From an uncultured Christensenella sp. (GTDB lineage Bacteria; Bacillota; Clostridia; Christensenellales; UBA1242), in assembly GCA_964455585.1 (NCBI GenBank), contig CAYVXW010000005.1:1972-65971 (forward strand): DNA of 64,000 nucleotides, written 5' to 3'. The translations under genes and the position numbers were made by a program. Below the pieces are notes generated by a model that saw nothing but the letters and a program-made list of their open reading frames with translations, did no database searches and was not told the DNA's origin. Within the stretch, counting starts at the first letter, position 1, and the number at the start of each line of letters is the position of its first letter. Positions 1,735-49,740 of this stretch are shown one piece after another.

Positions 1735-1996
1735 AATGAAAACAAAAACAACAATTATAGTAATAAATCAAAAAGTGTTAGTTGATGACGATAAAGAATC
1801 ATCTTATGAGTTTCGTATTGATGATTTGTTTAGATATGCAATGATTGAAAATGATAAATCTCGCAAGGCTACAGTATTTAAACAAGTTGCACAATTTTTA
1901 TTTGATAATGATATACGGGATGGGCAAATAATTACTTTTGTGGAAGAAAAATTAATAGAAGGAGAAAATAATGAAAATCATAGTAAAAAGTATTGA
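1735..1996 (+). CDS. Hypothetical early protein
   Basis: ORF with RBS GGAGAAAC before ATG 1735. No motif recognised. Confidence 0.4.
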
Positions 1997-3851
1997 TTTA
2001 ACAAATTTTAAAGGTTTTGCTAAATTACATAAAGAATTCGATCCTATAAAAGAAACTATAATGGCAGAAAACGGACAAGGAAAGACAACTCTAAAAGATG
2101 GTTTTTTCTGGGCTTTAGGTTTTAATCATATAGGAAATGTTATTCCAAGCAAAGACAACCTTGAAATTCCTAATTTGGAGATTAGGGCAACCATTAAAAT
2201 GGATATTGATGGTATCGAGTATTCTTTGGAGAGAACACAAAAAGAAGTGTGGAAGACTAACAAAGATACTGGTATCGAAGAAAAAATGAACAATGAGAGT
2301 TCGTATTTATTGGATGGAATTGAATATACTCTCAAAAATTACAAAGAAAAAATTGGAGACTTGTTCGGTGTTAACTATGACAAAATGTTAATGTTAATAG
2401 AAAAAGAGTTCTTTAACTCCAACACAAATAAATGGGGTTGGGCAGATAGAAGAAAAGAATTGTTTGAACTTTGCAACATAAACTCGCTATTAACTACATT
2501 GGTAGACAATGAAGAATACGACTTAATTAGAGAAGACATAAAGAAGGGATATTCGACTGCTGATATCAAGAAATCAATCGCAAAAGAAAGTAAAGGTTAT
2601 AAGGAAGAGAAAGAAAGGAATATGATTCTAATTGCCGATAAGCAAAACGAAATCTCAAAATATAACTCTGTTGATTTTGATACTATTGAAAAAGAAAAAT
2701 CGGAGTTGGAAAATAAGTTGACAGACCTATCTTTGCAATCGGCAAAACAAAAAGCAAATTCGATTATTGCAGAATATCAAAAACAAAAAACCGATAAAGA
2801 AATTGAACTACAAAAGTTAAAATTGGAAGATGTCCAAAAATCAAATGCAACCGAAGAGCAGTTAGATTTAATTTCTAGGGAACTTAAAAAGACAACTAGT
2901 CGTGCTAACGACCTAAAAGAAAATATTAAAACCGAAGAACAAAGAAGAGAAATTTATTTAGGGAAAATTGAAGAACTTAAAAAGTCTGAATGGCAAGGTT
3001 CAACTATTTGTCCTACATGCAAACAAACACTTCCAGTCGAAATGATTGAAACTGCAAAACAAAACTTTGAAAACGAGAAAAAACTAACTATTGGCAAATA
3101 CAATAGTTCTATTGAAAGTATTAATGCCTTTATTGACAATTCAAATAATGCAATTAATTCAATGAGAGCAAGTTATTCAACCCTTAAATCACAGTATGAT
3201 GAACTTATTATCAAAAAACAATCTTTTGTTGTTAACCCACTAATTGAACAATTGGAGAATGATATTAAATCTATCAACGATGAGATTACAAAAATTTTAA
3301 CCAATATGGAAGATGATAAAGAAAACAATTCCCTTATCGCAAGTATTAAAGAACAAATTAAAATCAAGAATGAACAACTTGCCTATAAAAATGTTGCCGA
3401 AGCAATTTCAAATAGGGTTGCAGAATTGAAAGAAAGAAACAAAGATTTGACCGATAAAGAAATGCTTTGCAAGACCAAAATTAAACAACTTGATGCTTAT
3501 GTTTCTGCACAAGTAAAAATGGTTACAGACTTGGTTAATAGCAAGTTTGACAATGGTGTTAGTTTTTCATTGTTTAATGTCTTGTATGCAAATAGTGACC
3601 ACGAAATAAGTGAAGAATGTGTTTGTATGCTTAATGGAAAAACTTACGATGAGATGTCATATGGCGAAAAGTTCATTGCAGATTTAGAGGTTGTTAAATC
3701 TCTTCAAAGAGAATATAATGCAAATCTTCCAATATTCTTGGACAATGCAGAGTGTGTGACAAGAGATTATGTTGCTAACCAACAACTTATTGAATTGTTT
3801 GCAAGTCGAAACAAATTTATTGATGCAATCAAAATAGAAAGTATTTTATAA
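1971..3851 (+). CDS. SMC/Rad50/SbcC-like recombination ATPase with central CxxC zinc hook
   Basis: N-terminal Walker A AENGQGKTT. Long coiled-coil with CPTCKQ near its middle. C-terminal Walker B/D-loop LPIFLDNAE. Confidence 0.7.
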   Translation: MKIIVKSIDLTNFKGFAKLHKEFDPIKETIMAENGQGKTTLKDGFFWALGFNHIGNVIPSKDNLEIPNLEIRATIKMDIDGIEYSLERTQKEVWKTNKDTGIEEKMNNESSYLLDGIEYTLKNYKEKIGDLFGVNYDKMLMLIEKEFFNSNTNKWGWADRRKELFELCNINSLLTTLVDNEEYDLIREDIKKGYSTADIKKSIAKESKGYKEEKERNMILIADKQNEISKYNSVDFDTIEKEKSELENKLTDLSLQSAKQKANSIIAEYQKQKTDKEIELQKLKLEDVQKSNATEEQLDLISRELKKTTSRANDLKENIKTEEQRREIYLGKIEELKKSEWQGSTICPTCKQTLPVEMIETAKQNFENEKKLTIGKYNSSIESINAFIDNSNNAINSMRASYSTLKSQYDELIIKKQSFVVNPLIEQLENDIKSINDEITKILTNMEDDKENNSLIASIKEQIKIKNEQLAYKNVAEAISNRVAELKERNKDLTDKEMLCKTKIKQLDAYVSAQVKMVTDLVNSKFDNGVSFSLFNVLYANSDHEISEECVCMLNGKTYDEMSYGEKFIADLEVVKSLQREYNANLPIFLDNAECVTRDYVANQQLIELFASRNKFIDAIKIESIL

Positions 3852-3861
3852 GGAGAAAATT

Positions 3862-4857
3862 ATGCAAAACGATATTATTATTTATGACAACAAAGCAATG
3901 ATAGATATTGCTGACAAATATTTACAAGAAGAAACTAGGGGTTTGGCTCTACCTGCAAACTATGACTATAAAGGGGCTGTTTCGGCATTGTATCTTCAGT
4001 GCTTAACAGTTACAACAAGTGACGGAAAACCAGCACTTGAAGTCTGCACAAGAGAAAGTATCGCAAAAACCATTCAAGACATGCTTGTGAAAGGTTTAAA
4101 CCCAAGCAAAAAACAATGTTATCCTATTGTTTATGCAAAGAGAGACAAGGACACGAAAGAAGTTATATGCTGGGAATTGCAACTACAAGAAAGTTATTTT
4201 GGTAGAAAAAAACAAGCATATACAAACAACAAAGAAATTGCAAACAACGGAATAATTGGACAATGTATTTACAAGGGAGACATTTTTGAAACCAGCATAG
4301 ACCAATACGGAAGAAAACACCTTGTAAAACACGAACAAAAATTTGAAAATATTAAAGATTCCAATATCATTGGAGCATATGCTTGTGTTCGATTTAAAGA
4401 TGGTTCGGATATGATAGATGTTATGGATATTGATTCTATTAAAAGGTCGTGGGCAATGAGTAGAACACAAGGTGACACTCACGGAAAATTTCCACACGAA
4501 ATGGCAATTAAAACTGTTATTTCAAGATTGTCAAAACAACTAAATAACTCAACCGATGATGAAATGGTTCTAAACCCAACCGATACAAATACCGATGAAA
4601 CCGAATTCGTTTTAGATCCTACAACAATAATTAACGAAGACCATTTAGAAGCGGAAGATCAAGACACTATAATAGTTGAAGATGTTCAAGAACCAACAGA
4701 CATTGCAGAAGAATCAATTAAAGAAGACATTCAAGAAACAACCAATAAATTAATATGTTCTAAATGTAATAAAGAAATCACACAAGCAGTTTATGATTTT
4801 TCGGTTAAGAAATTTGAAAAACCATTGTGTATGACTTGCCAAAAGGAAGAAAAATGA
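3862..4857 (+). CDS. RecT-family single-strand annealing protein with C-terminal zinc ribbon
   Basis: RecT-like pattern (GLNPSKKQCYPIVY, ESYFGRKK, GAYACVRFKDG, SWAMS, HEMAIKTVISRL). C-terminal CSKC...CMTC. Confidence 0.6.
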   Translation: MQNDIIIYDNKAMIDIADKYLQEETRGLALPANYDYKGAVSALYLQCLTVTTSDGKPALEVCTRESIAKTIQDMLVKGLNPSKKQCYPIVYAKRDKDTKEVICWELQLQESYFGRKKQAYTNNKEIANNGIIGQCIYKGDIFETSIDQYGRKHLVKHEQKFENIKDSNIIGAYACVRFKDGSDMIDVMDIDSIKRSWAMSRTQGDTHGKFPHEMAIKTVISRLSKQLNNSTDDEMVLNPTDTNTDETEFVLDPTTIINEDHLEAEDQDTIIVEDVQEPTDIAEESIKEDIQETTNKLICSKCNKEITQAVYDFSVKKFEKPLCMTCQKEEK

Positions 4858-10318: not shown

Positions 10319-12028
10319 ATGGCATACGGACAAATGAGTTTATTTGATGGCAGTAAAGATTTTGTGATAAATAAACCTATTAGATTAATTGAATTGTTTG
10401 CAGGATATGGTAGTCAGCACTTTGCTTTGAAATATCTAGGTTTAAATGTTGAAAGTTATAAAATTTGCGAATGGGCAGTTAAAAGTATTCAAGCTTATAA
10501 AGATGCACACTTTTCAAATGATAACACTGATTATTCTGAAACTTTGTCTTATGATGAAATTGTTCAATGCTTACTTAAATGGGGAATCAGTGCAAATTAT
10601 AACGAACCAATGGCAATAGACCAAATCAAAAGAATGGGTGAAGCAAAATGTAGACAAGTCTATAACAACATTAAAGCAACTCACAACCTAGTTAATATTC
10701 AACAAGTAAATGGTAAAGATCTTGAGATTGTTGATGTAGACAAATATACCTACATAATGACTTATTCGTTTCCTTGTCAAGATTTGAGTATGGCAGGGTT
10801 GAGAGAAGGTATGGCAAAGGGCAGTGGAACAAGAAGTGGGTTACTTTGGGAAGTTGAGAGAATTTTAGATGAAATTTCCTCAGCCGATAAAACTAAACTA
10901 CCACAAATTCTACTAATGGAAAATGTTCCAGAAGTTATAGGGAGTGCTAATATATCACATTTTGCTGATTGGTTAAAGAAATTGGAAGAGTTGGGTTATA
11001 GAAATTATAAACAAATACTTAATTCAAAAGATTATGGTGTCCCTCAAAACCGAGCAAGGTGCTTTATGATTAGTCTATTGGGTGATTACTATTATGGGTT
11101 TCCTCAGCCGATAAAACTAAATGACAAGTTAAAAGATATTCTCGAAGAGAATGTTCCAGAAAAGTATTATTTGTCTGAAAGAGCATTGAAAGGTTCTTTG
11201 AATACAAATTTTGCTTGTTCAAAACTTGAAAACAAACTGCCTAAAGACGGTATTATTCCTACACTTTGTGCAAGAGATTACAAGGATCCAAAATGTGTTA
11301 TGGTTGAAATTCCAAAGGTAAACATAAACGGAAAGGACTACGATGTTACGAAAAATTGCGAAAATTATATTGAGCGGCACCAAAAGGGTTTGTTAGATAT
11401 GGAGACTAGAGCATGGAAAGATAACAAAATCGCACCGACATTACACACAAATTGTGGAAAAACTAAAATTTTGGAAAGTCAAAATTTAAAAACAAAATTG
11501 TGTAACGACTTAATCACTAGTGGGAAAGTTAAGGAAGGTGATGTGATTAGACACTCGTATAGTTCAAGTCGTATGAAAAATTTTTATGTTTCTAATTCCG
11601 AAAACCCAGATTGCAGTCCAACACTTGATACAAGATGTGATTGCTTGGGTGTCGTTGTAAAAGTGAATAGCAATAATAAAAGATTACAAGACCTTGTTTC
11701 AAAGACACAATTTGGGGATGATACATTGGCTTTAGATTGTTATAACCAAACCACACATAAAGACTTTATGCAAACAATTAAAACTAGTATTGATACTAGT
11801 AATATGAATATGATTTATACCGATTATCGTATTCGAAAATTAACTCCTAGAGAGTGCTTTAGACTTATGGGAGTAAACGATATTGACTTTGATAAAATTG
11901 CTCAAAACCAATCAAATGCGAGTTTGTATCATCTTGCAGGAGATAGTATTGTTGTCAATGTCTTAATGGCAATTTTTAAACAAATGCTAAAAGGAGAAAA
12001 CAATGAAAACGACAAAATTACAAATTGA
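10319..12028 (+). CDS. DNA cytosine-5 methyltransferase with oversized target-recognition region
   Basis: Motif I LFAGYGS, IV SFPCQDLS, VI LMENV, VIII QNRARCF, IX RKLTPRECFRLMG, X AGDSIVVNV. About 260 aa lie between motifs VIII and IX. Confidence 0.85.
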   Translation: MAYGQMSLFDGSKDFVINKPIRLIELFAGYGSQHFALKYLGLNVESYKICEWAVKSIQAYKDAHFSNDNTDYSETLSYDEIVQCLLKWGISANYNEPMAIDQIKRMGEAKCRQVYNNIKATHNLVNIQQVNGKDLEIVDVDKYTYIMTYSFPCQDLSMAGLREGMAKGSGTRSGLLWEVERILDEISSADKTKLPQILLMENVPEVIGSANISHFADWLKKLEELGYRNYKQILNSKDYGVPQNRARCFMISLLGDYYYGFPQPIKLNDKLKDILEENVPEKYYLSERALKGSLNTNFACSKLENKLPKDGIIPTLCARDYKDPKCVMVEIPKVNINGKDYDVTKNCENYIERHQKGLLDMETRAWKDNKIAPTLHTNCGKTKILESQNLKTKLCNDLITSGKVKEGDVIRHSYSSSRMKNFYVSNSENPDCSPTLDTRCDCLGVVVKVNSNNKRLQDLVSKTQFGDDTLALDCYNQTTHKDFMQTIKTSIDTSNMNMIYTDYRIRKLTPRECFRLMGVNDIDFDKIAQNQSNASLYHLAGDSIVVNVLMAIFKQMLKGENNENDKITN

Positions 12029-37508: not shown

Positions 37509-38393
37509 ATGAGTGCATGGGAACAAAAACCGGAATATACCGAACTTGAAGAAATATTTTCAGAACAAACAACCAATAAAATCGGTTTAACTGCCGAGCA
37601 ACTTAATATAGTATTACATAATATTAGATACTTAAAGAACCATTTAGGTCTTGCAGATGTCGAAATGGGTGTTATGGAAACTGTGTATACGGAACCGGGC
37701 TCACCATTTGATGTTGTGATAACACACAGGGAAGAAAGTCAAGGTGAAGGTGTAAATAAAGTTGATTATTTCGATTTCAAATTTTACATTGCAGTTGCAA
37801 AGATAGAAACCGAAGCCAATGCGATTATTTCTGAAAACACAAATGAAGTTAAAGCAACTATTGAAAATACAAAGTTGTCAGATATGACAGGTTATAAGTT
37901 TAAGTTTAACTTTACAATTCCGAGAGGTTTGCAAGGAACAAAAGGTGCAGGTTTTAGGAATAAAGGAACTTATAACTCCGAGACAACCTATGTAAATAAC
38001 GATATTTATATAGACTATGTTAATTATAATGGTAGTTTGTATTGCCCAAAAGTCGAAGAAACAATAGGACACGAACCAACTGAAACTGATTACTGGACAT
38101 TAATGGTTGCCAAAGGTGAACACGGAGTGAGTATTGTTGGTATAGAAAAAACCAAAACGGAAGGACTGGTTGACACCTATACCATATCATTTAGTGAAGG
38201 TGAACCATTTGTATTCGCAGTCACTAATGGAGACACTCCAGATGTTTCCGACAAAGAAGACAAGTCAAATAAGGTATCCGAAATATCAACATCCAATAAA
38301 ACAAGTGATGAAAAATATCCGTCTTGTTCGGCAGTTGCTAATTATGTCGATACAAAATTTGGAGAAATGGCAACATTGCTAGGTGAGGTGTAA
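37509..38393 (+). CDS. Tail fibre protein
   Basis: Short collagen-like GLQGTKGAG. Sits in the fibre module. Confidence 0.45.
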   Translation: MSAWEQKPEYTELEEIFSEQTTNKIGLTAEQLNIVLHNIRYLKNHLGLADVEMGVMETVYTEPGSPFDVVITHREESQGEGVNKVDYFDFKFYIAVAKIETEANAIISENTNEVKATIENTKLSDMTGYKFKFNFTIPRGLQGTKGAGFRNKGTYNSETTYVNNDIYIDYVNYNGSLYCPKVEETIGHEPTETDYWTLMVAKGEHGVSIVGIEKTKTEGLVDTYTISFSEGEPFVFAVTNGDTPDVSDKEDKSNKVSEISTSNKTSDEKYPSCSAVANYVDTKFGEMATLLGEV

Positions 38394-38394
38394 T

Positions 38395-38709
38395 ATGAAT
38401 GGAGAACAAGCTTTTACAACTCAAATAGATAGAATTAAGGAAAATATTAGCAATGCTTATATTAGAGCAGAACAAAAAGGTGCAACAATGCCTACCATAA
38501 AAAATAGCGACAATCTACCAAGCACAATTGAAAGCATAACTGCTGGTGGTAGTGGTGGTGGAAACTTTGAAAAAATGTATGTCACTCAAACTATAAGTGG
38601 AGATGGTTGCACACTTGCAATTTCTTCGAGTGGTAGTGAAGATGATGCCAAAATTGTTGGACAAATCGTTTCTGGTGAAAACGGAAAAATATACATAGTG
38701 GAGGTCTAA
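38395..38709 (+). CDS. Tail fibre-associated small protein
   Basis: Start ATG 38395. Contains a G-rich linker AGGSGGGN. Confidence 0.35.
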   Translation: MNGEQAFTTQIDRIKENISNAYIRAEQKGATMPTIKNSDNLPSTIESITAGGSGGGNFEKMYVTQTISGDGCTLAISSSGSEDDAKIVGQIVSGENGKIYIVEV

Positions 38710-38710
38710 A

Positions 38711-40015
38711 GTGAGTATAGATACAACCAAAAAGGTAAATGGAATATCTGTAAATGGAACAAATATGCAATTCGGTTCCGGTATAGATTCCAATATATTA
38801 CCAAGTAATATTAAAGAAGGTGTTAGCATTTTGGGTGTTGATGGAACATTCAAAGGTGGCACCTTACAAAACAAAACAATAAACATAACAAGGAATAAAA
38901 CGACCATTGTTACACCCGATGATGGATATTATGGTCTTGGACAAGTTGAAATCATAACAAAGGTTCAAGGCGGCAGTGGTGGAACATCGTCTGCAATCTA
39001 TGGGGTGTCTTGGGATAACGATGGCACAACAACAATGACAAGAACCGATGATGCTGTAGAAATGACTTATGCGATTTCAAACGGAAAAGTTGCAAGTGAT
39101 TTTGACAATGTGTTCCCATACAACGAAATGAAAAGAACAACAATAGACGGAAATGTATTTGTACATGTTCCTGCCATGTTCTTTAGGGTAACAGTTGATG
39201 AGGACAAAAAAATCACAGGTGTTGCAGTAAGTCAAACACAAGGTGAGGGTGATGACTGGTATGAAACAAGACCTTTCTATTACGGAGCCTATGGTGCATC
39301 TAGTGATGGTTCGGTATTAAAATCGGTTAGTGGTGCAAGTAGAAAATATTCTATTACAAGAGCAAATGCAAGAACCCAGGCAATGGCAGTTGGAACTGAT
39401 TATCACCAAAGAGACCTATATGCTGGAACAATACTTATGTTCTTGTGGTGGATAGAATTTGCAACCAAAAACTCGGCAAGTATTATGACAGGCACACAAT
39501 ATGACAAAACCACTGGCAATACCGATAGCATTTACAACGAAGAAGAAGGTGAAAATTTCTGTGTTAGTGGTTATAATACATCCACATCTCAAATGGTATG
39601 GCACGGAATTGAAGATTATATCGGAAATGGTCTTGAGTGGGAAGATGGAATTACCGGTAATGGTTCTTCTGGTGGAACTCAATATGTGAGTGATGACTAC
39701 ACTCTATATGACGATTATTCTGGTGGGAGCAAGATGTCAGAATTGTCGTTCAATTCTCCGACAACAAGTGGGAACTGTCTAGAGGCTCTTGGCTGGGATG
39801 AAGATCATCCATTCTTGGTTCAACCTATTGCAACACGAAGTGATGGTAGTTATGTGAGTGGGTTCTGCGACTATGGTTCGACTAGCAACAATATAGTCTC
39901 CTCCCGTGGGTGTAGCTACCCGTCGAGTGCCTACAGCGGGGTCTCTTACTTCGCTCGTCGCAATGTGTCGCCTTCGTATTCGGACATCGGTTGTCGCCTT
40001 CTATTAAATGCCTAG
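38711..40015 (+). CDS. DGR target protein: receptor-binding tail fibre with C-terminal FGE/C-type-lectin-like variable domain
   Basis: GTG start. IGNGLEWEDG (FGE-sulfatase-like motif). The C-terminal 36 codons form the VR, ending ...IGCRLLLNA. Confidence 0.85.
   Translation: MSIDTTKKVNGISVNGTNMQFGSGIDSNILPSNIKEGVSILGVDGTFKGGTLQNKTINITRNKTTIVTPDDGYYGLGQVEIITKVQGGSGGTSSAIYGVSWDNDGTTTMTRTDDAVEMTYAISNGKVASDFDNVFPYNEMKRTTIDGNVFVHVPAMFFRVTVDEDKKITGVAVSQTQGEGDDWYETRPFYYGAYGASSDGSVLKSVSGASRKYSITRANARTQAMAVGTDYHQRDLYAGTILMFLWWIEFATKNSASIMTGTQYDKTTGNTDSIYNEEEGENFCVSGYNTSTSQMVWHGIEDYIGNGLEWEDGITGNGSSGGTQYVSDDYTLYDDYSGGSKMSELSFNSPTTSGNCLEALGWDEDHPFLVQPIATRSDGSYVSGFCDYGSTSNNIVSSRGCSYPSSAYSGVSYFARRNVSPSYSDIGCRLLLNA
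39896..40005 (+). repeat. DGR variable region (VR)
   Basis: 110-bp alignment to 40089-40198 at a constant offset of 193. 16 mismatches fall at TR adenines and 2 do not. Confidence 0.85.
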
Positions 40016-40027
40016 ACAGGGGGCAGT

Positions 40028-40042
40028 GGGGGATATTCCCCC
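40028..40042 (+). promoter_or_regulatory. GC hairpin downstream of VR (GGGGGA-TAT-TCCCCC)
   Basis: 6-bp stem and 3-nt loop, about 22 nt after the end of VR homology. Confidence 0.6.
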
Positions 40043-40088
40043 AAATACAACCAATTACAATTAAATAAAATAAAGGGTATTTGTTGCT

Positions 40089-40198
40089 GTCTCCTACCGT
40101 GGTTGTAACAACCCGTCGAATGCCAACAACGGGGTCTCTTACTTCAATCGTAACAATGTGTCGAATTCGAATTCGAACATCGGTTGTCGCAATGTATT
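40089..40198 (+). repeat. DGR template repeat (TR), non-coding
   Basis: In the VR frame it reads V S Y R G C N N P S N A N N G V S Y F N R N N V S N S N S N I G C R N, with 12 AAY codons. Confidence 0.85.
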
Positions 40199-40326
40199 TC
40201 CAAAAGCATCAAAAAGAAAATTCGTTTTCAAGGCAACACTTATCCTATACCACTTGGTAGAAAACACTCCGAACTAGGAGTAGGTTAGTAAATAATTGAA
40301 AGCTTACTAGGGGAAATAGATGGTTT

Positions 40327-41406
40327 ATGAAAAGAGTAGGATATATTTATGAAAAGATTATTGATTTGCAAAATTTAGAGTTGGCAATTGTAAAAGCATG
40401 TGAACACAAAAAGAAAAATAAGTTTATTGTTCATTTGTTGGAGAATAAAAGTTCATATGCTCAAGAAATAAGAACTCTAATTTTACAGGAAGATTTCCAT
40501 CCTTTAATCATTAAACATAAGAAAATAAAAGAAAAGACCAAAGTAAGAGATATTGCAGTTCCAAAGTTTTATCCAGACCAAATTATTCATTGGGCAGTTT
40601 GTTTACAATTGAATCAGATATTTATGAAAGGTATGTATCATTACAATTGTGGCAGTGTTCCAAATCGTGGTGGAGTTTATGCTAAAAAATATATCGAAAA
40701 ATGTTATTCAATATTAAAAGAGAAAAAATCTTACACGTTGAAACTTGACATTAAAAAATATTTTTACAACATTTCACACGAAAAAATGGAAGAATTGTTT
40801 CGAGAAAAAATTAAAGATGAAAGAGTTCTTGAAATGCTACACAAAATTATTGATTGTGGGGAAGATGGTTTACCAATAGGGTTTTATACATCCCAATGGT
40901 TCGCAAATTTTTATCTTCATAGACTTGATAATTATATAAAACAAGTATTACAAATTAAATACTATATTAGATATGTAGATGATATGGTTTTAATTGATAC
41001 AAATAAACGAAAATTACACAAGGCAGTTGAAGAAATACAAAAATATCTCGATAACAATAGTTATTGTGTAACACTAAAAGATAATTGGCAGTTGTGGAAA
41101 ACCTTTTCTCGACCACTTGATTTTCTAGGATATAGGTTCTACAAAAATTATACATTGTTGAGAAAAGGAATTCTCAAGAAAATGAAAAGACAAATCTTGA
41201 GAGTTGGAAAAGAAAAGACTTTGAGAATATGTAGGGCAAGGGCATTGACTTCGTATATGGGTTGGTTAAAACAAACAAGCATATCAAGGAGTTTCTATGT
41301 CAAACATATTAGACCTACTTGCAGTAAAAAATGGGTTGGCAGAATAATATCACATGATAGTAAAAGGAGAAATAAAAATGATAATAAAAGACGGAACAAA
41401 CCCTAA
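40327..41406 (+). CDS. DGR reverse transcriptase
   Basis: RT motif 5 IRYVDDMVLI (YxDD). DGR-type motif 4 LPIGFYTSQWFANFYL. 359 aa, directly downstream of TR. Confidence 0.9.
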   Translation: MKRVGYIYEKIIDLQNLELAIVKACEHKKKNKFIVHLLENKSSYAQEIRTLILQEDFHPLIIKHKKIKEKTKVRDIAVPKFYPDQIIHWAVCLQLNQIFMKGMYHYNCGSVPNRGGVYAKKYIEKCYSILKEKKSYTLKLDIKKYFYNISHEKMEELFREKIKDERVLEMLHKIIDCGEDGLPIGFYTSQWFANFYLHRLDNYIKQVLQIKYYIRYVDDMVLIDTNKRKLHKAVEEIQKYLDNNSYCVTLKDNWQLWKTFSRPLDFLGYRFYKNYTLLRKGILKKMKRQILRVGKEKTLRICRARALTSYMGWLKQTSISRSFYVKHIRPTCSKKWVGRIISHDSKRRNKNDNKRRNKP

Positions 41407-41638
41407 AATTGAAAAATTAAAAACTAGGCTTGGACTGACTGGAGATGTCTATCTTTATAACAACCATTTTGTCGAGAATTTGGAAAGTCACAAAAGACTA
41501 ATTCCAAATAGCACTGCCACCACTATAAGTGAAGCATTTGTTGAGAGGGTTGAGTATGAAATTGAACAAGAGAAAATTCGAGAAGAAATGCAAAAAGAAC
41601 AAATTGCAGAAGGGGAAGAAAAACCAGTCGAGATATAA
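41378..41638 (+). CDS. Hypothetical acidic protein overlapping the RT 3' end
   Basis: ATG 41378 (track start 41354 is an alternative). No motif recognised. Confidence 0.35.
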   Translation: MIIKDGTNPKIEKLKTRLGLTGDVYLYNNHFVENLESHKRLIPNSTATTISEAFVERVEYEIEQEKIREEMQKEQIAEGEEKPVEI

Positions 41639-45286: not shown

Positions 45287-45316
45287 GGCAAGATTTTATA
45301 GTCTTGTCTTTTTTGT
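45287..45316 (+). terminator. Terminator after the lipoprotein gene
   Basis: GGCAAGA-TTTTATAG-TCTTGTC followed by TTTTTT. Confidence 0.5.
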
Positions 45317-45412
45317 TTTGATAATATTTTCTTTTGTGCTAAACTAGTGGGGTATAATAGGGGTGGTGTGGAGTTTTGGAGCACCGAACCCAAAAGAACT
45401 AATGGAGAAATT

Positions 45413-47755
45413 ATGGACTTACTAGATAAACTAAATAGCCAACAAAGACTAATTGCAATGGACACCGAGGGGGCAAAACTTGTAACTGCCGGTGCGGGTT
45501 CGGGAAAAACTAGACTATTAACGCATAGGATTTGTTATTTAATACAAGAAAAAGGGGTAAGCCCAAGCAACATTTTGGCAATTACTTTTACAAACAAAGC
45601 CACAAATGAAATGAGGGAAAGAATTGAGCAAATGATACCTAATAGTTTTGGTATTACTATCAAGACTTTCCACGCCCTTTGTGCAAACATTCTTAGGGAC
45701 AATATTTCCAAGTTGGAGGGTTTTGATAGATACTTTTCGGTGTACGACAGTAGCGACCAAGACAAACTACTAAAGAAGGTTATAAAGTCCTTGGAAGTAA
45801 AAGACGATTTGGCAAAATATTGCGATTATCATATATCAAAAGCCAAAAATGCGGGACTTACTCCTGCCGAGTATCTAAGGGATAATAAGTACGAAAGAAA
45901 CATAGATACTTATGTAAAAGTGTATTCCGAGTATCAAAAGGAACTTAAAGCCAACAATGCTCTTGACTTTGATGACTTGTTACTTAAAACTCTTGAGTTA
46001 TTCCACCAAAGTCCCGAAACGCTAGAATATTACCAAAATAAATATAGATACATCCACGTAGACGAATTTCAAGACACAAACCTTGTACAATACAAAATTG
46101 TAAGGCTACTCTCGGCTAAGTGGAAAAATATATTTGTCGTGGGTGATGAGGACCAATGTATTTATTGTTGGAGAGGGGCGAATATTGAAAATATTAAGAA
46201 CTTTACAAAAGATTATGATTGCAAAATATACAAGTTGGAGCAAAACTATCGTAGCACAAAAAACATTATAAAGACGGCAAATACGCTAATAAAAAACAAC
46301 TTTGCTCGTATTGACAAAACACTCTTTACCGAAAACGAAGAGGGCGAAGAAGTTACATACAACGAGGCGTACGACGAAAACGAAGAAGCCGAGTATGTTG
46401 CAAGGCAAATATACAATCTAAAGGCTAAAGGCGTAAATTTGAGCGAAATTGGCGTGCTTATGAGGGTCTCGGCTCTAAGTAGGCTTGTGGAAGAAAAAAT
46501 GCTTAATTACAATATTCCATACAAAGTTAGTGGGATATTTAAGTTCTTTGAGCGTTTGGAAATAAAAAATACCATTGCATATCTTAGTATGGTGGTCAAT
46601 CCAAAGGACGCCGTCAATGTTACAAGGGTCATAAATTGGCCAAAAAGGGGCATAGGACAGGCGACAGTTGACAAACTAATAGAGGAAGCAAGGCTTAGAA
46701 ATATGCCTCTTGTCGACCTTATTGAGAACTTTAGAGAAAGTAGTCTTCCTAGTGCCATAAAAGCCAAGATTGCCGACTTTGGCGACCTGATTACCGACCT
46801 TAAAAAGGCTTATCAAGAAAAATCACTATTTGACTTTGTGGACTATGTTATAACAACCGTTGGCATAAAGGATATGTACAACACCAACGCCGAGGAAGAT
46901 ATTGACAGGTGTCTAAACATTGACCAATTGTTGCAATCGGTAAAAAGTTATGAGCATCTAAATCCAGATGCCAATTTGGTGGACTATTTGGAGGGTATTA
47001 CTCTTCAAAACAATATGGAAGAAGATAGCGCCGAAGACACCGTATCCATATCCACCGTTCACGCAAGCAAGGGGCTAGAGTTTGATTATGTATTTGTAAT
47101 AGGTGCCGAAGAGGGCAAGTTCCCTTTGAATAGAGCAATGGAAAGTGAGGACGAACTTGAGGAAGAAAGAAGACTTATGTACGTTGCTATCACTAGGGCT
47201 AGAAAAAAACTATATGTAACAAAAGCAAAATCAAGGTTTTTGTACGGCAAGCGAGAAACGCAACTACCTAGTAGGTTCCTAAAGGAAATGGGGCTAAAAG
47301 TAGCCGAAAAACCAAGATATAGTGGCTATGACGAAGATAGTGGATATGCAAGCAAAAACTACGGCTATAGTGGATACAAGTCAGGATATTTAGGCGGATA
47401 TGGTCAAGGTGGCTACTCTTCTGGTGGCTCAAATTACGGAAAGTCCGCTAGTCCAAGTTATGGAACATATGATAGTTACGCAAAGACCCAATCAAGTTTT
47501 GGTGGAACGCAAAAATCGGGTTTAAACGGCTTGCAAAACTTGCAAAATATAAATACAAGCAAAATTAGTGAGCAAAAGAAGAAACTTGACGACTACAAGG
47601 TGGGTGTTCAAGTGCTTCATACCAAGTTTGGTGTGGGAACTATTGTAAAAGTGGAAGATGCGGGTGGCAACAACTATGTGTCGGTTGACTTTGGTGCAAT
47701 TGGCGTAAAAACCTTGTCTCTAAACTTTGCACCACTTCAAATTTTGAAAAAATAA
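45413..47755 (+). CDS. pcrA: ATP-dependent DNA helicase PcrA/UvrD
   Basis: AGAGSGKT, DEFQDTN, QNYRST, VHASKGLEF, RRLMYVAITRA, and a C-terminal Tudor-like VLHTKFGVGTIV. Start moved to ATG 45413. Confidence 0.9.
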   Translation: MDLLDKLNSQQRLIAMDTEGAKLVTAGAGSGKTRLLTHRICYLIQEKGVSPSNILAITFTNKATNEMRERIEQMIPNSFGITIKTFHALCANILRDNISKLEGFDRYFSVYDSSDQDKLLKKVIKSLEVKDDLAKYCDYHISKAKNAGLTPAEYLRDNKYERNIDTYVKVYSEYQKELKANNALDFDDLLLKTLELFHQSPETLEYYQNKYRYIHVDEFQDTNLVQYKIVRLLSAKWKNIFVVGDEDQCIYCWRGANIENIKNFTKDYDCKIYKLEQNYRSTKNIIKTANTLIKNNFARIDKTLFTENEEGEEVTYNEAYDENEEAEYVARQIYNLKAKGVNLSEIGVLMRVSALSRLVEEKMLNYNIPYKVSGIFKFFERLEIKNTIAYLSMVVNPKDAVNVTRVINWPKRGIGQATVDKLIEEARLRNMPLVDLIENFRESSLPSAIKAKIADFGDLITDLKKAYQEKSLFDFVDYVITTVGIKDMYNTNAEEDIDRCLNIDQLLQSVKSYEHLNPDANLVDYLEGITLQNNMEEDSAEDTVSISTVHASKGLEFDYVFVIGAEEGKFPLNRAMESEDELEEERRLMYVAITRARKKLYVTKAKSRFLYGKRETQLPSRFLKEMGLKVAEKPRYSGYDEDSGYASKNYGYSGYKSGYLGGYGQGGYSSGGSNYGKSASPSYGTYDSYAKTQSSFGGTQKSGLNGLQNLQNINTSKISEQKKKLDDYKVGVQVLHTKFGVGTIVKVEDAGGNNYVSVDFGAIGVKTLSLNFAPLQILKK

Positions 47756-47760
47756 TATAA

Positions 47761-49740
<1,980 letters not shown>

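Follow-up and report, generated by a model that had tools for sequence, protein, structure and literature searches.

The locus analysed here, in an uncultured Christensenella sp. (contig CAYVXW010000005.1 of assembly GCA_964455585.1), contains a direct repeat of 110 nt, with one copy inside a tail-fibre-like gene and the other beyond its stop codon. The question that it raises is whether the two copies are the variable and the template repeat of a DGR, and if so, which residues are diversified and by what apparatus. The window, that is, the whole stretch of 64,000 nucleotides to which all positions below refer, was searched for repeats, and the copies were placed at 39896-40005 and 40089-40198 with 84% identity. 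As detailed below, we are confident that this is an intact, accessory-gene-free "TR-RT" DGR of a temperate tailed phage, which diversifies the tip of a tail-fibre-like gene.

Results

The two repeats differ at template adenines

The repeat pair and the gene that contains VR are made up of the following features.

38711 to 40015, + strand: target gene, an ORF for a tail-fibre-like protein of 434 aa; residues ~95-434 are the predicted C-type-lectin/FGE-fold domain, with VR at the C-terminus
39896 to 39997, + strand: VR (variable repeat), 34 codons, residues 396-429 of the target gene; delimited by repeat search, alignment and A-to-N pattern scan
39998 to 40015, + strand: fixed VR-side 3' flank, CTTCTATTAAATGCCTAG, encoding Leu-Leu-Leu-Asn-Ala-stop; putatively IMH-analogous; holds the CTT that the preliminary description counted as a twelfth rewritten codon
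40089 to 40190, + strand: TR (template repeat), with 25 adenines, none of them at a third codon position; 11 AAY codons plus TAC, TAC and ATC

VR occupies the 3' end of the coding target (codons 396-429 of 434), and TR, which is non-coding, follows after a gap of 91 nt and adjoins the RT gene, whose start codon lies 136 nt further downstream. A TR pattern with each A replaced by N matched nothing in the window besides VR and TR (0 matches expected by chance); the window thus holds one VR and a single target. Over the 102-nt core, VR differs from TR at 14/25 adenines and at 1/77 non-adenines (Fisher p=1e-9), which bears out the TR/VR pair proposed from the sequence in the preliminary description. 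The peptides given there were also reproduced in the frame of ORF 38711..40015, TR reading VSYRGCNNPSNANNGVSYFNRNNVSNSNSNIGCR(N) and VR reading VSSRGCSYPSSAYSGVSYFARRNVSPSYSDIGCR(L). The sole non-adenine difference, a silent GGT to GGG change at 39910, had been missed.

The earlier count of 12 Asn codons, 11 of them rewritten, is literally right for the 35 codons quoted (12 AAY, of which 11 differ, plus TAC to TCC), but its twelfth codon is not a diversified site. Because unbroken VR/TR homology ends at 39997/40190, the final codon pair CTT/AAT falls outside it. At this position (40191-40193 on the TR side), VR had CTT in all nine related loci compared and TR had AAT in 8/9; the VR-side flank opened with an identical CTTCTA in 9/9 loci, and Leu430 was invariant in 110/110 homologs. 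By analogy with IMH/IMH*, the CTT/AAT pair is probably part of the fixed VR/TR difference just past the homing boundary. The twelfth AAY codon lies outside the diversified region, which leaves the cassette with 11 AAY codons, of which VR has changed 10.

The TR adenines are distributed 12/13/0 over the three codon positions. Besides the AAY codons, TAC (codon 3), TAC (codon 18) and ATC (codon 31) carry further mutable adenines, of which the preliminary description gave only the one TAC to TCC change, and the scaffold codons are A-free in 20/20 cases (P about 1e-6.6 under the local codon usage). As adenines occur only at positions 1-2 of 11 AAY, two TAC and one ATC codons, 14 residues can be redrawn per event and never yield a stop; that no stop codon is reachable had been predicted correctly. 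The repertoire amounts to about 15^11 x 4^3 = 5.5e14 peptides, so that the earlier estimate of ~15^12 was right in its order of magnitude but not in its formula.

A DGR-type reverse transcriptase without Avd

Downstream of TR lies the gene of a reverse transcriptase.

40327 to 41406, + strand: DGR-type reverse transcriptase, 359 aa; full-length ORF; PF00078 (E=1.8e-14) and phrog_1423 (E=3.5e-87)

The protein carries R74, IGFYTSQ at 184-190 and YVDD at 216-219, and thus both the catalytic YxDD and the [I/V/L]GxxxSQ signature of DGR RTs, where other RTs have QGxxxSP (PMC7826257). It fell below the cut-offs of the group II intron, retron and Drt families, and its C-terminal tail is very basic. 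The best PDB sequence match was 8ub7 ("Reverse transcriptase", E=3.4e-21), which we take to be the BPP-1 bRT.

The target gene is located at the end of the tail module, and the cassette belongs to a temperate tailed phage integrated next to the host pcrA-ligA. Megablast against GenBank phages gave no match, and tblastn gave only distant ones (27-31% identity), including Lactobacillus phage LBR48. A scan of genome contigs gave nothing but relatives at 41% identity, in a Ruminococcus MAG, Phascolarctobacterium and Firmicutes CAG:238. Neither the VR-TR gap nor the TR-RT gap contains an ORF, and Avd was absent by family searches of the flanking ORFs and among 10 basic small candidate ORFs of the prophage. 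Avd is present in about 74% of DGRs and is not universal; to our knowledge, it is essential in the only DGR studied biochemically. Its absence here is consistent with Architecture A.

Alternatively, RT and RNA may not be the whole apparatus, and the DGR, though functional, could require an accessory factor that has escaped recognition: a protein of the host, or one of the phage that takes the place of Avd without being homologous to it. We consider this unlikely, though a serious contender, given that Avd is essential in BPP-1 (PMC5758913) and that close relatives have small conserved ORFs next to the cassette. These ORFs, at 38383-38709 and 41354-41638 in the window, were examined as accessory factors and rejected: they are acidic, with pI 4.7-5.1 against an average of about 9.5 for Avd (PMC5758913), have no family match, and are missing from 80/80 distant RT-sharing loci, of which 42/80 keep the target domain. 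No Avd-type family was detected among the basic small prophage ORFs either, and 29% of catalogued DGRs lack accessory genes, with no distant avd found for them (PMC5758913).

RNA and DNA elements surround TR and VR

Between the target gene and the RT gene, the following elements were recognised.

40027 to 40043, unstranded: inverted repeat rich in GC, TGGGGGA-TAT-TCCCCCA, 29 nt beyond VR on its 3' side; may act in target recognition as a hairpin or cruciform
40074 to 40088, + strand: 5' arm of a predicted long-range RNA helix, AGGGTATTTGTTGCT, ending exactly at the TR start; identified by covariation
40191 to 40231, + strand: spacer from TR to the 3' arm, starting with fixed AAT(G/T)TATTTCC, which is IMH*-like and includes the AAT counted as the twelfth Asn codon
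40232 to 40246, + strand: 3' arm of the predicted helix, GGCAACACTTATCCT; 13/15 pairs with 40074-40088, bracketing TR and making a closed loop of it
40248 to 40321, + strand: RT-18 RNA (Rfam RF03021); 4-bp stem-loop at 40248-40259, an A-run and a larger stem, reaching as far as the ribosome-binding site of the RT gene

In BPP-1, the inverted repeat that follows VR has a known function (PMC3240598). In the present family the G5/C5 stem is kept in 9/9 loci with differing loops, and its folding gave z of about -1.9 to -2.3; the stem has 5-7 bp, and the loops deviate from the published pattern of a 7-10 bp stem with a GRNA loop (PMC3240598).

The putative helix that brackets TR was evaluated over 54 distinct constructs, the 5' arm of each locus being the best-pairing of 1-14 [ATG]GGG candidates, and 90.5% of cells were paired, as against 68% for shuffled sequences and 27-52% when the partner was slid. 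Compensatory changes were found at 12/15 pairs. Single-sequence MFE folding of the 263-nt TR RNA did not recover the long-range helix, and the stability was no better than that of shuffles (z=0.05); it is the covariation that points to the helix. The RT-18 match scored 52.8 bits, above the gathering score of 41.3, and covered the full-length model (1-84), and RT-18 lies between TR and RT in 19/19 loci (the window and 18/18 related loci tested).

Taken in order, these elements have the layout of the BPP-1 "cPRT Stop", in which a duplex of pre-TR sequence with the spacer is followed by a short stem-loop and then by adenosines: here, the 15-bp duplex (40074-40088/40232-40246), the stem-loop 40248-40259 and then GAAAA. 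The published "cPRT Stop" survey covered only Avd-bearing DGRs. The AAT(G/T)TATTTCC segment after TR is conserved in 8/9 loci, and by analogy with BPP-1 the spacer 40191-40231 presumably contains the site of cDNA priming. A UUCG-capped hairpin at 40216-40229 was considered as a template:primer duplex and found unsupported; it occurs in close relatives, but a hairpin at this place was present in only 26/48 distinct clade sequences versus 34% of shuffles. A promoter/terminator scan around the cassette gave nothing over the shuffled background.

Variation in relatives follows the TR adenines

When the nine loci were pooled, 117/230 TR adenines were changed in VR compared with 5/688 other bases (p=2e-75). 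The preliminary description had named equally frequent changes outside the AAY-derived codons as an observation that would speak against it; the rates of 51% and 0.7% leave its reading standing. The 51% equals the misincorporation of bRT at adenines in vitro, 52% (PMC7826257). TR was invariant between loci and VR was not, and all 18 close homologs had distinct VR peptides. At the AAY columns of these close homologs, none of 198 residues was E, K, Q, M or W (P=1e-15), only NNY-encoded residues were present, and all 15 residue types were accepted, in line with the claim that diversification is limited to adenine-bearing, mostly AAY, codons. The same test over all 110 homologs gave 5.6% E/K/Q/M/W and was confounded because distant homologs carry other TRs; redone with close homologs, it was clean. 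The mean column entropy was 3.27 bits at variable positions and 1.82 bits in the scaffold. Two near-identical phages, L081 and L084, differ at 17/102 VR bases and at 1/6,997 bases elsewhere, and this VR turnover shows that the DGR was recently active in the lineage. As variation in the relatives is restricted to adenine-templated positions, we infer from them that the DGR of the present genome may also be active today.

An intact DGR accounts for these data better than a relic in which VR was diversified formerly and is now a frozen allele of an inactive cassette, which we regard as improbable. The non-adenine difference at 39910 could represent drift since the last homing, and decay does occur in the clade, where the RT of one relative (L090) is split in the ORF calls into two parts, of 146 and 172 aa. 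However, the RT ORF here is full length with its catalytic and DGR motifs intact; TR, RT-18, the predicted bracketing helix and the hairpin show no damage and resemble those of the relatives; one non-adenine change per 77 bases fits the bRT non-A error rate of 0.4-1.7% (PMC7826257); and VR turnover in the near-identical relatives is very recent. Finally, an ordinary tandem duplication with point-mutation divergence, or a silent gene-conversion cassette working without reverse transcription, would explain two direct copies 193 nt apart with only one in frame, but is effectively refuted by differences that are directional and base-specific (TR-A to VR-N, as pooled above), by an invariant TR beside a varying VR, by variable columns limited to NNY-encoded residues and by the DGR-type RT and RNA motif that adjoin the repeat pair in all 19 loci scanned.

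The target model resembles DGR variable proteins

The target had no Pfam, PHROG or NCBIfam match, also when 18 family members were searched with a cut-off as loose as E<=5, and Pfam FGE/CLec models, including FGE-sulfatase, gave no match. A sequence-profile search of the PDB produced one marginal match (5vf4, E=0.079). The target domain family has more than 400 homologs and no Pfam model.

The AF2 model of the target had a pLDDT of 87.5 overall, ~96 for residues 95-434 and 93-97 across VR. Foldseek against the PDB gave as top matches TaqVP (5vf4, E=2e-6), Mtd (1yu0-1yu4), PvdO, FGE and TvpA (2y3c), and each of ranks 1-26 was a DGR variable protein or of the FGE/PvdO/EgtB type; in these best structural matches, as in the target model, VR forms the C-terminal strands and loops. 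TM-scores were modest, 0.37-0.46 to the solved variable proteins and 0.26-0.46 overall, with 8-14% identity. The C-type-lectin/FGE fold that had been suggested for the C-terminal domain is thus supported by TaqVP, Mtd, TvpA and FGE at these TM-scores. Much closer in structure were phage "tail collar fiber" models that lack annotation (TMq 0.65-0.69), such proteins also being found in a BFVD structure search down to E=1.6e-25. The variable positions fall on loop 402-409 of the model and show i/i+2 spacing at 415/417 and 421/423/425. Together with the 15 residue types accepted and the higher column entropy, this hints indirectly that the variable residues may cluster on one solvent-exposed face, as the preliminary description had suggested. 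Presumably, the variable residues sit on the C-type-lectin-fold tip of the fibre, where their exchange would retune receptor binding.

Discussion

The cassette shares with BPP-1 (mtd-avd-TR-brt) adenine-specific TR-to-VR mutagenic retrohoming with an AAY-rich TR, a VR in the 3'-terminal part of a tail-fibre gene whose product has the C-type-lectin fold, a fixed IMH/IMH*-like VR/TR difference where the homology ends on the 3' side, an inverted repeat rich in GC downstream of VR, a TR-to-RT spacer of about 136-140 nt, the "cPRT Stop" duplex, stem-loop and adenosines, and an RT with [I/V/L]GxxxSQ and equivalents of R74 and I181. It differs from BPP-1, where avd lies between VR and TR, in having no avd and only 91 nt in that place. 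The RT has 359 aa with its very basic tail instead of 328 aa, the bracketing duplex has 15 bp with a 2x2 internal mismatch instead of 11 bp, the VR hairpin has the shorter stem and non-GRNA loops described above, and no similarity between the target and Mtd was detected at the sequence level.

On the BPP-1 paradigm, an RNA consisting of the 5' arm, TR, spacer and RT-18 would be bound by the RT. cDNA synthesis would be cis-primed in the spacer and would proceed 3' to 5' along TR, a wrong base being inserted opposite about 50% of the adenines, until the bracketing duplex halts it; we propose that VR/TR homology starts exactly at 40089/39896 because synthesis stops at this duplex. The cDNA would then replace VR up to the GGTTGTCGC boundary, with the downstream hairpin as a guide.

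The accessory-free DGRs (Architecture A1, TR-RT core; avd-less "Lineage 3"; Wu et al. 2018, PMC5758913) have the same order of target/VR, TR and RT, no accessory gene and an AAC/AAT-rich TR, and the repertoire here is inside their catalogued 1e5-1e30 range. The present clade is distinguished by the RT-18 RNA and by a target domain invisible to Pfam. The paper on RT motifs tied only RT-10 to a DGR and speculated on the other RT motifs (Weinberg et al. 2017, PMC5737381). The RNA here agrees with RT-18 (RF03021) in matching above the gathering score at the 5' side of an RT, and differs in being preceded by the predicted 15-bp long-range helix, which lies outside the 84-nt model. A widespread Avd-less phage DGR clade may have retained in full a BPP-1-like cis-priming RNA, the "cPRT Stop" duplex, stem-loop and A-run forming a 5'-extended RT-18; should the RT with its very basic tail need nothing beyond this RNA to make adenine-mutagenised cDNA, the clade would amount to a natural minimal two-component DGR. 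We offer this tentatively, as a possibility somewhat short of even chances.

Because the literature already covers the AAY logic, the scaffold of C-type-lectin fold and DGRs without accessory genes (PMC5758913, PMC7826257, PMC8144416), the finding as first written is a further example of a known system. For the phage, it marks the 434-aa protein as a receptor-binding protein and predicts that the last 34 codons, those of VR, are heterogeneous in any population, which bears on assembly, strain typing and host-range prediction. Three points are modestly useful beyond this locus: annotation can treat RT-18 as a spacer RNA of DGRs; a covarying helix, the counterpart of the BPP-1 "cPRT Stop", appears to enclose the TR of this clade despite the absence of Avd; and the target domain family is probably a C-type-lectin-fold variant that sequence-based annotation of DGR targets would miss.

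Adenine-specific differences between two repeats at the end of the tail module

The largest repeat found in the region by a repeat search was a 110-nt direct repeat with 84% identity (39896-40005 and 40089-40198). The first copy, the variable repeat (VR), forms the 3' end of a target gene that closes the tail module of a prophage, and the second, the template repeat (TR), lies in an intergenic region.

Genes of the prophage and its surroundings (window positions)
23171: terminase
24996: portal
27734: major head protein
32035: tape measure
up to 38393: tail proteins
37509-38393: tail-fibre PHROG
38711..40015: target ORF (434 aa), 3' end = first repeat copy (VR)
40089-40198: second repeat copy (TR), intergenic, upstream of ORF 40327..41406
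40327..41406: reverse transcriptase (RT)
45347-47755: pcrA
47773-49740: ligA

The GC content of the prophage is 0.29-0.35 and rises to 0.39-0.43 from about 45.3 kb, where pcrA and ligA are found. The step from ~0.33 to ~0.40 at ~45300-46000 coincides with the start of pcrA/ligA and probably marks the junction between prophage and host. On this side of the prophage no integrase was detected; in a related locus, L083, the corresponding site holds a serine recombinase. The prophage genes also include an SbcC-like nuclease subunit and a large DNA methyltransferase (1971-3851 and 10319-12028).

Compared base by base, the unbroken VR/TR homology was 102 nt long (VR 39896-39997, TR 40089-40190) and contained 15 differences, 14 at TR adenines and one a silent TR-T to VR-G change at 39910. 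Accordingly, 14/25 TR adenines but only 1/77 other bases were altered (Fisher p=1e-9). A TR pattern with every A replaced by N matched only VR and TR in 64 kb, with 0 matches expected by chance. In the VR frame TR encodes VSYRGCNNPSNANNGVSYFNRNNVSNSNSNIGCR and VR reads VSSRGCSYPSSAYSGVSYFARRNVSPSYSDIGCR, identical to the peptides given in the preliminary description.

ORF 40327..41406 encodes a reverse transcriptase (PF00078, E=1.8e-14; phrog_1423, E=3.5e-87) that scored far under the cut-offs of the NCBIfam group II intron, retron and Drt RT families. Its nearest solved relative by sequence was 8ub7 (E=3.4e-21), with group II intron and retron RTs ranking behind; 8ub7 is labelled only "Reverse transcriptase" in the database, and we take it to be bRT, the RT of the diversity-generating retroelement (DGR) of phage BPP-1. 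The 8ub7 sequence has I181 within IGSLTSQ, as published for bRT. The window RT carries the DGR signature IGFYTSQ at residues 184-190, YVDD at 216-219 and Arg74, and thus has equivalents of R74 and I181, the bRT residues that promote adenine mutagenesis (PMC7826257). The C-terminal 45 residues of this enzyme (315-359; 41272-41406; ...SKRRNKNDNKRRNKP) are extremely basic (pI 11.7).

Natural variation and the size of the cassette

We aligned the VR/TR pairs of the window and of eight related loci from public assemblies, reached via close homologs of the target protein. Pooled over the nine loci, VR differed from TR at 117/230 adenines (51%) and at 5/688 other bases (0.7%; Fisher p=2e-75), two of these five lying at the repeat boundary of L090. 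The confinement of variation to adenine-bearing codons, as previously proposed, is therefore borne out, and changes elsewhere are clearly not equally frequent. The value of 51% matches the rate at which bRT with the accessory protein Avd misincorporates at template adenines in vitro (52%; PMC7826257). In L090 (4590-5577) the RT is called as two ORFs of 146 and 172 aa and VR differs from TR at 14 adenines; recent decay of the DGR or a frameshift in the assembly could account for the split.

The preliminary description counted 12 AAY codons, 11 of them rewritten. The AAY cassette itself stands, and the twelfth codon does not: the true count is 11, with 10 rewritten. The disputed Asn codon, AAT at 40191-40193 in TR, faces CTT (Leu430) at 39998-40000 in VR. 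VR continues as ...TGTCGC followed by CTTCTA in 9/9 loci, and TR as ...TGTCGC followed by AAT(G/T)TATTTCC in eight of them and by TAAATATTTCC in L090. Leu430 is unchanged in 110/110 homologs, and non-adenine VR/TR differences start right after its codon. The VR codon at this site is constant across loci whereas every other AAY-derived codon is variable, so this is a fixed VR/TR difference and not a mutagenised site. It lies beyond the 3' homing boundary and is the counterpart of IMH/IMH* in BPP-1 (PMC5758913, PMC3240598).

The cassette also holds three single-adenine codons: TAC at codon 3 (TCC in this VR), TAC at codon 18 (mutated to S or C in L085 and L089) and ATC at codon 31 (mutated to V, L or F in L083, L088 and L090). 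By enumeration the repertoire is 15^11 x 4^3 = 5.5e14 peptides from 4^25 = 1.1e15 DNA variants, and no stop codon is reachable, as had been stated.

At the 11 AAY-derived columns of 18 close homologs (198 residues), all 15 NNY-encoded amino acids were present and E, K, Q, M and W were found 0/198 times; elsewhere in the domain these five account for 16% of residues (P=1e-15). The VR peptides were distinct in 18/18 homologs. Two contigs from adjacent sequencing runs, L081 (SRR10277268) and L084 (SRR10277267), differed at 17/102 VR positions and at 1/6,997 positions outside VR, direct evidence that the DGR has been active very recently in this phage lineage. The substitutions at TR adenines in the nine loci were A>T 48, A>G 43 and A>C 26. 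Tyr, Ser, Asn and Asp prevail at the variable positions of these loci and the 18 homologs, while Ile and Thr, likewise single-step products, are rare; the skewed spectra hint at selection or RT bias.

The codon composition of TR is built for diversification. All 20/20 scaffold positions use A-free codons (TCG/TCC/TCT, CGT/CGC, GGT/GGG, GTC/GTG, CCG, GCC), although the A-free share of codons in the prophage genes is just 11% for Arg, 42% for Pro, 39% for Ala and 45% for Ser; given this usage, the joint probability is ~1e-6.6. Asn accounts for 32% of residues in the TR reading frame vs 6% in the remaining protein, and TR adenines fall at codon positions 1/2/3 in the ratio 12/13/0.

Predicted fold of the target protein

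The target family, with >400 homologs, had no match in Pfam, PHROGs or NCBIfam, even at E<=5 over the family. The AlphaFold2 model (110-sequence alignment) had a mean pLDDT of 87.5, with ~96 for residues 95-434 and 93-97 for VR. A Foldseek search of the PDB placed Thermus TaqVP on top (5vf4, E=2e-6, probability 1.0), followed by Mtd variants, PvdO, formylglycine-generating enzymes, TvpA and EgtB, with TM-scores of only 0.26-0.46. Among predicted viral structures the best matches were "tail collar fiber" proteins (E down to 1.6e-25, TMq 0.65-0.69). Since these matches come without a sequence-family match, the C-type-lectin/FGE fold proposed for the C-terminal domain is supported, as a prediction, at the structural level only. 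To our knowledge, this is the fold of all solved DGR variable proteins.

Three indirect signs fit the idea that the variable residues may share a single exposed face. In the model they lie within the 402-409 loop and then at i/i+2 spacing on the following strands. These positions take every residue class in the 18 close homologs. Their mean column entropy is 3.27 bits vs 1.82 bits for the VR scaffold. The C-terminal module of ~340 residues, itself without a Pfam model, occurs behind many N-termini, including PF13620 (CarboxypepD_reg-like), PF13306 (LRR), PF17789 and PF01391 (collagen), suggesting modular exchange of tail-attachment domains. Other N-termini are short adaptors of ~95 aa with low pLDDT (target residues 1-95, window 38711-38995; homologs P0018-P0120).

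A compact layout without Avd

There is no ORF in the VR-TR gap (91 nt) or the TR-RT gap (136 nt). Conserved small ORFs on both sides of the cassette are acidic (pI 4.7-5.1), whereas Avd has an average pI of ~9.5 (PMC5758913); they have no family match and are missing from 80/80 distant loci sharing the RT. A search of the prophage's small basic ORFs found no Avd-type family. It is pure speculation that the basic RT tail binds nucleic acid and might compensate for the absent Avd. The layout corresponds to the accessory-free Architecture A1, to which 29% of DGRs belong (PMC5758913), and the compact order of VR, ~60-170 nt, TR, ~100-155 nt and RT gene was seen in 40/66 distant loci. Three distant loci (L022, L023, L033) are spaced differently: ~310-320 nt separate TR from the RT gene, and VR precedes TR by 300-900 nt.

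A DNA hairpin and a TR-bracketing RNA helix

Elements around TR (window positions)
40027-40043: GC-rich inverted repeat TGGGGGA-TAT-TCCCCCA, 29 nt 3' of VR
40074-40088: helix 5' arm, 15 nt immediately 5' of TR, AGGGTATTTGTTGCT
40232-40246: helix 3' arm, ending one base ahead of the first RT-18 hairpin, GGCAACACTTATCCT
40248-40321: RT-18 RNA (Rfam RF03021), 52.8 bits vs gathering score 41.3

In BPP-1 a hairpin/cruciform 4-34 bp after VR is needed for homing (PMC3240598). A G5/C5 stem with differing loops was found at the equivalent place in 9/9 loci, but compared with the BPP-1 type the stem here, at 5-7 bp, is shorter and the loops deviate from GRNA. Within 40018-40048 two G5 runs (40019-40023, 40028-40032) precede one C5 run and thus allow two alternative hairpins; both G5 runs are kept in 9/9 loci.

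RT-18 was directly upstream of the RT gene in 18/18 other loci scanned, including IMG/VR phages with RTs only 34-48% identical. Its discoverers linked only RT-10 to a DGR, speculating on other motifs (PMC5737381). Because this orphan RT-associated motif occupies the TR-RT gap at 19/19 loci, counting the window, it can be annotated as a DGR spacer RNA.

The two arms bracketing TR form 13/15 pairs, interrupted by a 2x2 internal mismatch, and their duplex energy is -17.3 kcal/mol (best cross-locus control, -15.0). Such a helix, enclosing 112-183 nt, was present in 69/73 scorable clade loci with very different arm sequences (e.g., 4354-4368 with 4505-4519 in the relative L086). We aligned 54 distinct constructs, anchored on a conserved AGGG and the RT-18 hairpin, with the 5' arm picked per locus as the best-pairing of 1-14 [ATG]GGG candidates; 90.5% of cells paired, vs 68% for shuffles (0/500 reached the observed value) and 27-52% for slid partners. 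Compensatory changes occurred at 12/15 pairs, and the covariation score was 0.605 vs 0.19. Unconstrained folding of the window RNA alone did not recover this long-range helix.

In the cryo-EM structure of the BPP-1 RNP, the cPRT Stop element ends cDNA synthesis just ahead of a duplex, and its order of duplex, 4-bp stem-loop and A-run is matched by the helix and the start of RT-18. The bracketing duplex may likewise stop cDNA synthesis, which would explain why VR/TR homology begins exactly where the 5' arm ends. A UUCG-capped 5-bp hairpin at 40216-40229, 2 nt before the 3' arm, sits where BPP-1 has its template:primer duplex; it was not supported as such a duplex, since its clade-wide frequency is no higher than in shuffled sequence. 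Close relatives have it in other sequence (GCAA loop in L086).

We conclude that the cassette is a genuine DGR and apparently intact. The reasoning of the preliminary description is essentially textbook DGR logic: AAY-rich templates, their 15-amino-acid repertoire without stops and the C-type-lectin scaffold have been published (PMC5758913, PMC7826257), and such cassettes are prevalent in phage tail fibres (PMC8144416). The published cPRT Stop survey was limited to Avd-containing DGRs. The newest element is an Avd-less clade that appears to keep a cPRT-Stop-like RNA as an extension of RT-18, in which the helix, the first RT-18 stem-loop and the A-run mirror the cPRT Stop of BPP-1.
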